Assembly (NCBI GenBank): GCA_024275415.1
Contig: JAJRZD010000046.1
Coordinates: 1 to 6,370, forward strand
From: an archaeon
GTDB lineage: Archaea > Asgardarchaeota > Thorarchaeia > Thorarchaeales > Thorarchaeaceae
Direction of reading: 5' to 3'
Length of the DNA: 6,370 nucleotides
Made by a program: the position numbers and the translations under genes. The notes under the pieces were generated by a model. It did not search any database. It saw only the letters and a program-made list of their open reading frames with translations, and was not told where the DNA came from. Positions within the stretch are counted from its first letter, which is position 1. Each line of letters begins with the position of its first letter. Below, one piece after another: positions 4,152 to 5,312 of this stretch.

Positions 4152-4179
4152 CTAATAACTACCTACCAATAGTTATTAG
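4152..4179. promoter_or_regulatory. Perfect 10-bp inverted repeat in the divergent intergenic region (operator or bidirectional promoter candidate)
   Basis: CTAATAACTA (4152-4161), an 8-nt spacer CCTACCAA, then TAGTTATTAG (4170-4179). Outer arms TTCTC (4145-4149) and GAGAA (4181-4185) extend it. Confidence 0.7.
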
Positions 4180-5312
4180 TGAGAAAAACACAAACACATT
4201 TTGTGAATAGCTCAGCTGCTGACATCGAACCGAAGTGTACTATTATCCAGAAGGTCATAGTCCTCGGTGACAATCCTGCATTGATGGCAGGTTTTGTGAA
4301 TCGTGCATCAGGACTAAACACAGTATATCATCTCTATGCAGCACTTGGTGTTGGGATTGGCATTGCACGGACACGGACAACGGATCAGAATGAAGTGGTC
4401 ATGCAGCTTTGGCTGATACCCAACTCGGAAAGAGTGCGGGGAATCAATGAACAGTTCAGGAGAGGATACTCGGGGGCTATAATTGTCGTCAATAATGCAG
4501 ATGTGATGAACCTTAGCAGCCCCCTAGAGTCGCTCAAGAAAGATACCCTTAAGTCGTGCTTGATTGTAGTAGTCGGGTCTCAAGAAGTTGCAGATAGGGC
4601 ACAACAGATTGCTTTACGATATTTTGATGCCATTGAGGAATACACCTCAAGAGTGAGGATTGACAACATCGTCGGTGAATTCGGGAATGCGTTGTACGAT
4701 CATTATAAGGGACAGGAAGCCACCACGATGATAATAAGGCTGGACGAAGACCAATGTCCTGAGTATCACCATATGCAGGTTCATTCCAATATCCCTGAGT
4801 GCACCCCTGAAGGTATCGAACTCATCAAGTCAATCTCCAAACGAATGGGTCTGGTCGTGGACGAGGCTGACATCATCATCGACCATAGTGTAGGACTGTT
4901 CAGAGTGGATTTCAGGAGTGGCGATGTGAGATTCACTCCCGCTTTCTGTGATCACTGTATTCACGACTGCATTAGGAATTCGAATATTTGCATTGTGGGC
5001 ATTGATAGGGGGTGGTCATCAGAGGAAGTGGACGACCGAGCCCTCTTGATTGTTGCCAAAATCTATGCTCTGGCTGAAGACAACCTGCCTCAGCATGTCA
5101 AGAGGCAGATAAGAATAGCACTGCAATGCAGGAACTATTCCCCCATCAAAGATGCTTTCAATGCACCACTGTCAGAGTCGTACTCAGGACGGATCTCATT
5201 GCTCGAAGAGGCAGCACAACGAGTGTCCACACGAAGGCTGTCAGTGTCCACATTCGAATTATTAAAGAAACGGCTACAACACATCAGGAGCAGAGAGGAG
5301 CAATATGGATGA
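4179..5312 (+). CDS. Degenerate Rab/Ras-like small-GTPase-fold protein (pseudo-GTPase) fused to a Cys-cluster domain and a SHOCT-like C-terminus
   Basis: The N-terminal region aligns by eye with Rab-family GTPases (KVIVLGD...LGVGI...VMQLW...ERVRGINEQFRRGYSGAIIVVN) but lacks GKS/T, DxxG and NKxD. Cx2Cx3Cx6C lies at 4947-4991. The C-terminal LLEEAAQRVSTRRLSVSTFELLKKRL resembles SHOCT. The true start may be GTG 4203. Coding status is more certain than the domain calls. Confidence 0.75.
   Translation: MRKTQTHFVNSSAADIEPKCTIIQKVIVLGDNPALMAGFVNRASGLNTVYHLYAALGVGIGIARTRTTDQNEVVMQLWLIPNSERVRGINEQFRRGYSGAIIVVNNADVMNLSSPLESLKKDTLKSCLIVVVGSQEVADRAQQIALRYFDAIEEYTSRVRIDNIVGEFGNALYDHYKGQEATTMIIRLDEDQCPEYHHMQVHSNIPECTPEGIELIKSISKRMGLVVDEADIIIDHSVGLFRVDFRSGDVRFTPAFCDHCIHDCIRNSNICIVGIDRGWSSEEVDDRALLIVAKIYALAEDNLPQHVKRQIRIALQCRNYSPIKDAFNAPLSESYSGRISLLEEAAQRVSTRRLSVSTFELLKKRLQHIRSREEQYG
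5295..5300 (+). promoter_or_regulatory. Shine-Dalgarno-like site for the LOG gene
   Basis: GAGGAG lies 4 nt upstream of ATG 5305, inside the 3' end of the upstream CDS. Confidence 0.55.

Follow-up and report, generated by a model that had tools for sequence, protein, structure and literature searches.

A Rab-like domain without G boxes fused to a cysteine-cluster domain: a predicted pseudoGTPase and its relatives in Asgard archaea

The stretch of DNA considered here (referred to below as the window) is the entire 6,370-base contig JAJRZD010000046.1 of a Thorarchaeaceae genome (assembly GCA_024275415.1; 3.5 Mb, 93% complete), and the subject of this analysis is a gene in it for a two-domain protein, the N-terminal part of which is related to Rab-type small GTPases and has lost the motifs that bind GTP, and the C-terminal part of which carries a cluster of conserved cysteines. 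This gene is followed on the same strand by a SLOG/LOG-like gene and by a gene for a calcineurin-like phosphoesterase, and is preceded by a short inverted repeat; the coordinates of these features, and of the motifs within the two-domain protein, are collected in Table 1. Residue numbers throughout are counted from the GTG codon at 4179, with which the longest open reading frame (ORF) begins. The true start is, however, probably the GTG at 4203, since all orthologues, as well as the 369-residue database copy of the protein itself (P0002), align from residue 9.

Table 1. Features of the window, with the evidence on which each assignment rests (coding sequence, CDS; hidden Markov model, HMM; AlphaFold2, AF2; predicted local distance difference test score, pLDDT).
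Feature	Position	Strand	Basis or remark
Perfect 10-nt inverted repeat (CTAATAACTA / TAGTTATTAG, 8-nt spacer)	4152-4161 / 4170-4179		Candidate promoter or operator; overlaps GTG 4179
Two-domain protein, CDS	4203..5312	+	369 aa from GTG 4203; longest ORF, from GTG 4179, 377 aa (ORF list)
Rab-like domain, predicted pseudoGTPase (residues 21-182)	4239..4724	+	AF2 secondary structure, Foldseek, HMM matches to Rab/Ypt, weak Pfam Roc match
Pseudo-G1, GDNPALMA (residues 30-37)	4266..4289	+	Aligned to GDSGVGKT; GxxxxGK[S/T] gone, no Lys, no Ser/Thr
Switch-I-like A-L-G (residues 55-57)	4341..4349	+	Aligned to T-I-G; opens the RabF1-like segment LGVGI
Pseudo-G3, WLIPN (residues 78-82)	4410..4424	+	Aligned to WDTAG; WLIPNSE pairs with WDTAGQE
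Pseudo-G4, GSQEV (residues 133-137)	4575..4589	+	Aligned to GNKSD; Asn, Lys and Asp of NKxD all gone
C-terminal alpha/beta domain, core (residues 210-320)	4806..5138	+	AF2 on 116-sequence alignment, pLDDT 90
Cx2Cx3Cx6C cluster (C257, C260, C264, C271)	4947..4991	+	116-member alignment
Fifth conserved Cys, C317	5127-5129	+	116-member alignment
C-terminal helical hairpin (residues 341-376)	5199..5306	+	AF2 helices
SLOG/LOG-like gene (LDcluster4, TIGR00725)	5305..5823	+	Pfam 1.2e-45, NCBIfam 2.4e-43
Calcineurin-like/PPP-type phosphoesterase gene (GDLHGD, GDYADRG, GNHE)	5824..6370	+	Pfam Metallophos 3.1e-23

The relationship of the N-terminal domain to Rabs can be seen both from sequence and from a structural model. 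When the domain alone (residues 9-190) was compared as a single sequence with the PDB, the best 60 matches listed were all to Rab or Ypt chains (E 2.4e-5), and a profile built from 13 orthologues reached E 5.5e-8 (Rab2A, Rab11, Ypt1) over residues 15-146. Pfam yields for the window protein only a match to Roc that lies below threshold (E 0.0018; 18.9 bits, the cut-off being 27), the Ras threshold likewise not being reached, and it is because Pfam alone gives no more than this that the protein has been annotated as "hypothetical". The AF2 model calculated from the orthologue alignment has a mean pLDDT of 70, but over most of the N-terminal domain the value is 85-90, and the topology there is one of six strands and five helices in the order characteristic of a G domain. 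A Foldseek search with this model returned Rabs in all of the top 50 rows (E from 1.8e-7, probability 1.00, template modelling score by target reaching 0.70), the solved Rab of Thorarchaeota (7eze) being one of those listed, so that the small-GTPase fold expected from the original prediction, which had been made from the letters of the sequence, is borne out. Prediction of a homodimer (two copies, orthologue alignment) gave a score of 0.00 against a mark of 0.42, which is not evidence either way.

The pairing of the G boxes was established using HMMER alignments to Rabs together with a MAFFT alignment that included canonical Asgard GTPases. Beyond the replacements listed in Table 1, the alignments show Ala or Ser in place of the Mg-binding Thr of G2, and nothing in the window protein that aligns with a SAK-type G5 motif, so that none of the features expected of the Rab family at G1, the switch-I Thr of G2, DxxG of G3, NKxD of G4 and SAK of G5 is present. 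The replacements are themselves well preserved: the G-x-N-P-A-[LR]-M-A form of pseudo-G1 is conserved among close orthologues, and Q76-L-W-L-I-P81 is invariant across the 13 orthologues. In the original prediction the corresponding alignment had been made by eye; its coordinates for the G1 and G3 replacements, and its reading frame, were exact, and the same pairings emerge from HMMER and MAFFT. For G4 the loss of NKxD stands, but the segment aligned to it is SQEV, one residue away from the GSQE that had been proposed. The RabF-like segments that had been picked out as still recognisable do align in the manner suggested (IGVEF with LGVGI, LQIW with MQLW, FRSIT with VRGIN and YYRGA with FRRGY), and the RabF motifs of the window protein may thus be described as degenerate yet aligned. 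The protein ends ...SREEQYG and has no terminal Cys, i.e. no prenylatable Cys motif; such a motif is also missing from the canonical Rab of Thorarchaeota (PMC10933270).

Twelve orthologues, all from metagenome-assembled genomes of Thorarchaeota and 33-49% identical to the window protein, share the same box replacements; they were recovered as proteins or as complete ORFs, with their frames intact, and in the window's own genome the gene is present as a single copy. Across the window's taxonomic family, the ORF is intact in the majority of genomes. Evolution of the family is fast, to the extent that identity between orthologues of one GTDB genus is no more than 39-48%. In the closest pairs of orthologues the proportion of nonsynonymous differences (pN) is 0.09-0.30 and that of synonymous differences (pS) 0.64-0.86, these figures being taken from the closer pairs available in a sister clade, given that dS is saturated between the window gene and its own nearest orthologue (48% identity). 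A comparison of dN with dS across orthologues had been proposed as a check on the original prediction, and with pN so far below pS its outcome points in the purifying direction; to judge from these sequences, purifying selection on the gene is clear. It had also been suggested there that orthologues with intact G boxes would mark this copy as one that is simply decaying. Orthologues of that kind were not found; the same replacements are common to all, and several of them are invariant.

The distribution of conserved positions along the N-terminal domain is markedly uneven. Across residues 21-98, which comprise beta-1, the pseudo-P-loop, alpha-1, switch I, the interswitch and switch II, 22 of the 78 columns are invariant among the 13 orthologues and the mean frequency of the top residue is 0.75-0.87, whereas across residues 99-182 (beta-4 to alpha-5) the corresponding figures are 4 of 84 columns and 0.41-0.52. 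It is in the second of these parts that G4 and G5, which would read the guanine, are located in a canonical GTPase. Rabs have a hydrophobic triad to which RabF1 contributes its Phe, RabF2 its Trp and YYRG its first Tyr, and at the positions aligned to these the window protein has I60 and W78, both invariant, and F93, conserved in at least 90% of cases. Such a pattern is what one would expect if a face of the type that engages effectors or guanine nucleotide exchange factors (GEFs) had been kept and the base-binding half had been freed from constraint, and it lends indirect support to the proposal, also part of the original prediction, that the protein keeps its effector surface.

An exhaustive search using phmmer yielded 122 representative clusters, some 45 of them related to the window protein over its full length; most of the others have in common with it only the C-terminal domain (residues ~210-325), their N-terminal domains scoring significantly on the Pfam Ras family. 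Proteins in which a Rab-like N-terminal domain is combined with a Cx2Cx3Cx6C...C C-terminal domain make up a family of at least 75 representative clusters; the records in which it was found are all Asgard ones, and the relatives belong to Thorarchaeota, Promethearchaeota and Helarchaeota, which agrees with the Asgard setting alluded to in the original prediction. In a pattern scan covering the genomes of some 186,000 species, every record with the window's own subfamily was of Thorarchaeota or Promethearchaeota, Thorarchaeota SMTZ1-45 among them. The C-terminal domain is carried by 107 of the 301 genomes sampled from the phylum, usually in one to three copies (45/76 in the window's taxonomic family, and 25/68, 16/19, 5/6 and 10/11 in others). 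When the G boxes were read from the HMM alignment in 75 two-domain representatives, GxxxxGK[ST] was found to be kept in only one, a Helarchaeota protein (P0053) that is the least degenerate member of the family and is annotated by NCBI as "Rab family GTPase". The glycine of DxxG and the NKxD motif are kept in none of the 75, while the Asp of G3 (as WDxxxxE) is retained by many, and the N-terminal domains of the less degenerate members score 1e-20 to 6.6e-30 on the Pfam Ras family (PF00071). The loss of the G boxes is therefore present in the window gene, as had been claimed, but is not peculiar to it, being a property of the whole Asgard family. The window's genome contains, beside its one predicted pseudoGTPase gene, a large set of canonical small GTPases, with 39 matches to PF00071 above the cut-off, several of them in tandem (on five contigs), and among the 31 canonical Ras-family paralogues checked there are 29 in which the P-loop and NKxD are both kept.

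A tree restricted to the N-terminal domain (IQ-TREE quick search, LG+C20) was calculated for 71 family rows and 34 canonical, non-eukaryotic ones. All 71 family rows are separated from the 34 canonical GTPases by one branch (SH-aLRT 95), and the window protein falls inside a 33-row clade (support 100) marked by W-[LSTA]-[IL]-P. If the tree is rooted on the canonical set, the first family clade to branch off is that which holds the P-loop-retaining member together with forms having WD..QE and GxNxD. Read most simply, these relationships would mean that the fusion took place once and that degeneration then proceeded step by step, the clade of the window protein being the most derived; a common origin of the family is supported independently of the N-domain tree, because the C-terminal domain is shared.

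The C-terminal domain is modelled with high confidence and has eluded assignment to any known family. In the AF2 model its elements follow in the order helix, three strands, short Cys-bearing helix, fourth strand, two helices, loop and helical hairpin, and the hairpin has conserved columns of the form LLEEA...R and L...L. Among 116 family members there is no variation at C257 or C260, and conservation is at least 90% at C264, C271, I272, G278, W279, K294, P304 and C317; the Cys cluster presumably binds Zn or an Fe-S centre. Pfam finds no family common to all 116 domains (single members carry matches of helix-turn-helix (HTH) type), a PDB sequence profile gives only a chance match (E 9.7), a Foldseek search of the PDB returns nothing at E <= 0.001, and in the ESM Atlas a feature search with residues 205-377 gave no usable match and a fold search nothing above a TM-score of 0.44. 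In an exhaustive VIA search the best Z was 5.0, and roughly half of the top 50 rows were UEV, E2, Atg3/Atg10 or RWD domains, all with Z of 5 or less and within the noise range of the tool; an alpha+beta sandwich resembling RWD/UBC domains may be taken from this search as a weak lead. The rows listed contained no match to a roadblock or longin domain. For the tail, a search with those of 10 family members, up to E 10, gave no SHOCT or other Pfam match, bearing in mind that motifs as short as these are easily missed. In one Asgard family (nine genomes) the Cys-cluster domain occurs in ORFs of ~140-200 residues that have no GTPase-like part, and one member carries winged-HTH Pfam matches; because of these occurrences the domain can be regarded as mobile and not confined to the Rab-like fusion.

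Turning to the surroundings of the gene, the start of the SLOG gene overlaps its stop by 8 nt, and the SLOG gene is, judging from this overlap, translationally coupled to it; the PPP-type phosphoesterase gene follows directly on the SLOG stop and is truncated where the contig ends. This trio recurs in orthologous Thorarchaeota loci, where it is followed by genes for DUF362, UbiA, PHP_C and LPG_synthase_TM proteins, but in other Asgard lineages the neighbours of family members are unrelated (subtilase, UPF0047, Rag/Arf-like GTPase, JAB/MPN protease, eIF-1A and others). The linkage to SLOG and PPP genes is thus lineage-specific, and for that reason a weak guide to the core function of the family. 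Two of the neighbours elsewhere are a Rag/Arf-like GTPase (L016:8388-9308, +; Gtr1_RagA 1.1e-19) 1.2 kb downstream of a distant family member, and a JAB/MPN protease (L020:7511-8233, -) that is convergent with and adjacent to another; both are possible functional neighbours, and neither is conserved in its position. PADLOC found no defence-system match for the two-domain protein, the PPP protein or the 723-residue protein encoded upstream, and for the SLOG protein only generic SLOG similarity to PsyrA/ShosA.

Upstream, the inverted repeat (4152..4179) lies between a divergent ORF (3863-4132, -) and the gene for the two-domain protein, and the GTG at 4179 falls within it. The TTATTA contained in the repeat is some 25-30 nt upstream of the GTG at 4203, a position that would suit an archaeal TATA box if a leaderless transcript began at 4203; the repeat may be put forward as a candidate promoter or operator. 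A search for sequencing runs with 4100-6370 listed no run, and no holder of RNA data, which says nothing about expression. The 723-residue protein (1695-3866, +) has a hydrophobic segment near its N-terminus, a transmembrane helix near its C-terminus with KRQRRV after it, as well as an HExxHxxGxxH motif (LHETMHAIGLGH) of the kind typical of metzincin-type zinc proteases; no significant match to it was found in Pfam, NCBIfam or PADLOC. In other Thorarchaeota loci, too, the orthologous gene has a protein of similar size (732-738 residues) encoded upstream of it. At the very beginning of the window (3-467, +) a cation-diffusion-facilitator transporter is represented by its C-terminal end (ZT_dimer, in two stretches), and a full gene for such a transporter occupies the equivalent place in two orthologous loci.

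Our interpretation, to which we would attach a probability of roughly 0.7, is that the product of the ORF is a two-domain Asgard protein, functional and maintained by selection, the N-terminal domain of which is a predicted class-i pseudoGTPase serving as a nucleotide-independent binding module. The domain descends, on this reading, from a small GTPase of Rab-like type and has lost every residue that contacts GTP or Mg, namely the Lys and Ser/Thr of the P-loop, the Thr of switch I, the Asp and Gly of DxxG, NKxD and SAK, and it is because of this that neither binding nor hydrolysis of nucleotide, nor switching driven by GTP, is to be expected of it. Class i is defined by a GTPase fold from which the G motifs have been lost, together with experimentally demonstrated lack of nucleotide binding and hydrolysis; the first of these is indeed what the AF2 model, Foldseek and the alignments reveal. 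Selection acts on the face formed by the pseudo-P-loop, switch I, the interswitch and switch II, including I60, W78 and F93; that face would constitute a permanently available protein-binding surface, and the Cys-cluster domain together with the helical tail would add a second interface, or else an input from metal or redox state. The absence of nucleotide binding, the binding of metal and a role as scaffold or adaptor are all things that we infer, as is the role of scaffold or decoy envisaged in the original prediction. Several points weigh against this interpretation. With dS saturated, dN/dS is bounded only roughly, at about 0.1-0.3 or less; long-branch attraction among such fast-evolving sequences could affect the tree; no gene neighbourhood is conserved across the Asgard families, the trio being conserved within the Thorarchaeota family only; and some unconventional ligand could still be bound in the conserved pseudo-P-loop pocket (NPALMAGFVNRASG).

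The last of these points leads to an alternative that we regard as unlikely, in which the N-terminal domain is still a ligand-binding switch, either because the pseudo-P-loop pocket binds a nucleotide or some other phosphorylated or small ligand in a non-canonical manner, or because a redox or metal switch in the Cys cluster has taken the place of the GTP cycle. That few parts of the protein are as well conserved as the pseudo-P-loop and alpha-1 (residues 21-46; mean top-residue frequency 0.81) goes beyond what a purely structural remnant would need, and the five conserved cysteines of the fused domain, as well as the operon-like arrangement in Thorarchaeota with a SLOG protein, related to nucleotide-ligand binding, and a PPP phosphoesterase, would fit such a scheme. 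However, all of the canonical contacts to phosphate, Mg and base have been replaced, a Pro has entered the loop, the base-binding half is poorly conserved, and the SLOG/PPP linkage is missing in the other Asgard families.

It is far less probable still that the gene is a decaying Rab-like paralogue, in effect a pseudogene in progress without any function of its own. The loss of all the G boxes and the fast evolution of the family are what might suggest decay, but they have to be set against the intact frames of the orthologues, the invariance of the replaced motifs themselves, the excess of pS over pN, the occurrence of the family across the phylum, mostly in single copy, and the confidence of the AF2 models (with pLDDT 90 for the C-terminal domain), while identities of 33-49% exclude the orthologues being assembly duplicates of a single population. 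No more credible is the suggestion that the resemblance to Rabs is convergent, or that it reflects some generic Rossmann-like alpha/beta fold in a domain not derived from small GTPases. Although the Roc match in Pfam falls short of its threshold, all 60 rows listed in the sequence-only searches are Rab or Ypt chains, the structural match is to Rabs specifically, and intermediates that have the same C-terminal domain score strongly on PF00071, one of them even keeping a canonical P-loop.

Comparison with characterised systems places the predicted pseudoGTPase in a clearer context. Canonical Rab/Ypt proteins (Rab11, Rab2, Ypt1, and the Rab of Thorarchaeota in 7EZB/7EZE) share its G-domain fold and are its best matches in both sequence and structure, and it keeps their RabF1-F4-like segments and the positions of their hydrophobic triad; it differs from them in having G1-G5 replaced, in having no prenylation Cys motif, and in the 190-residue Cys-cluster domain fused at its C-terminus. 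The main structural paper on Asgard small GTPases, from which PDB entries 7EZB and 7EZE derive, deals with the canonical Thorarchaeota Rab only (PMC10933270). The closest functional analogy is with CENP-M, a Rab-like pseudoGTPase of the human kinetochore that is unable to bind GTP and acts as a protein-binding subunit (PMC4080450). As in the window protein, its small-GTPase fold is related to that of Rab-type GTPases, but it is eukaryotic, consists of a single domain and is without a Cys-cluster domain, and the likeness drawn here is one of fold and predicted function. The N-terminal domain of AAGAB/Irc6 has been classified, following the scheme of Stiegler and Boggon, as a class-i pseudoGTPase; it was found by experiment not to bind nucleotide and is a module for protein-protein interaction (PMC12490416). 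It resembles the window protein in combining a G-domain fold, the G motifs of which have been lost, with a C-terminal domain, and differs in being eukaryotic and in binding its partner, AP1/AP2 sigma, through a non-switch interface, whereas the conserved face of the window protein is the switch region.

Two further comparisons are less close. Rag/Gtr GTPases, which are abundant in Asgard archaea, have a similar architecture, in that a small-GTPase-type domain is followed by an alpha/beta domain (roadblock) that serves for interaction, but they keep functional G boxes, and the N-terminal domain of the window protein matches Rab rather than Rag. The pG1 and pG2 domains of p190RhoGAP are nucleotide-free, GTPase-like pseudoGTPase domains within a multidomain protein (PMC5593906); they differ in being Rho/Ras-unrelated in sequence, in being metazoan and in forming part of a RhoGAP.

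Full-text searches of the literature produced no description of an archaeal pseudoGTPase or of a fusion between a Rab-like and a Cys-cluster domain, although absence from such searches is not proof of novelty. The statement in the original prediction that no characterised dead Rab-like protein with this fusion was known needs dividing: the fusion and the archaeal occurrence do look new, but dead Rab-like proteins as such are known from eukaryotes (CENP-M, PMC4080450; AAGAB, PMC12490416). The Rab-like class-i pseudoGTPases characterised to date are eukaryotic, and work on Asgard small GTPases has been concerned in the main with their place as precursors of the switches of eukaryotic trafficking; the present family suggests that dead GTPases have been put to new use as protein-binding modules in Asgard archaea, as they have in eukaryotes. 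If this is true, the Asgard repertoire of small GTPases already holds non-catalytic members with regulatory or scaffolding roles, and catalogues of "Rab family GTPases" in Asgard genomes overcount the true switches, the annotation of P0053 being a case in point. The Cys-cluster domain, which is confidently modelled, matches no sequence in Pfam or the PDB and stands alone in some lineages, is a well-delimited object for studies of structure and of metal binding. A bolder and rather doubtful possibility is that the protein mimics an active Rab, being either gated by metal or redox state or constitutively "on", and engages the effector- or GEF-type partners of the many canonical Rab-like GTPases with which it shares a cell, with a Rab-derived domain coupled to a Zn or Fe-S domain of uncatalogued fold. 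Were that to be so, the family would provide a prokaryotic precedent for the regulation of a small-GTPase network by pseudoGTPases, one that predates eukaryotes.

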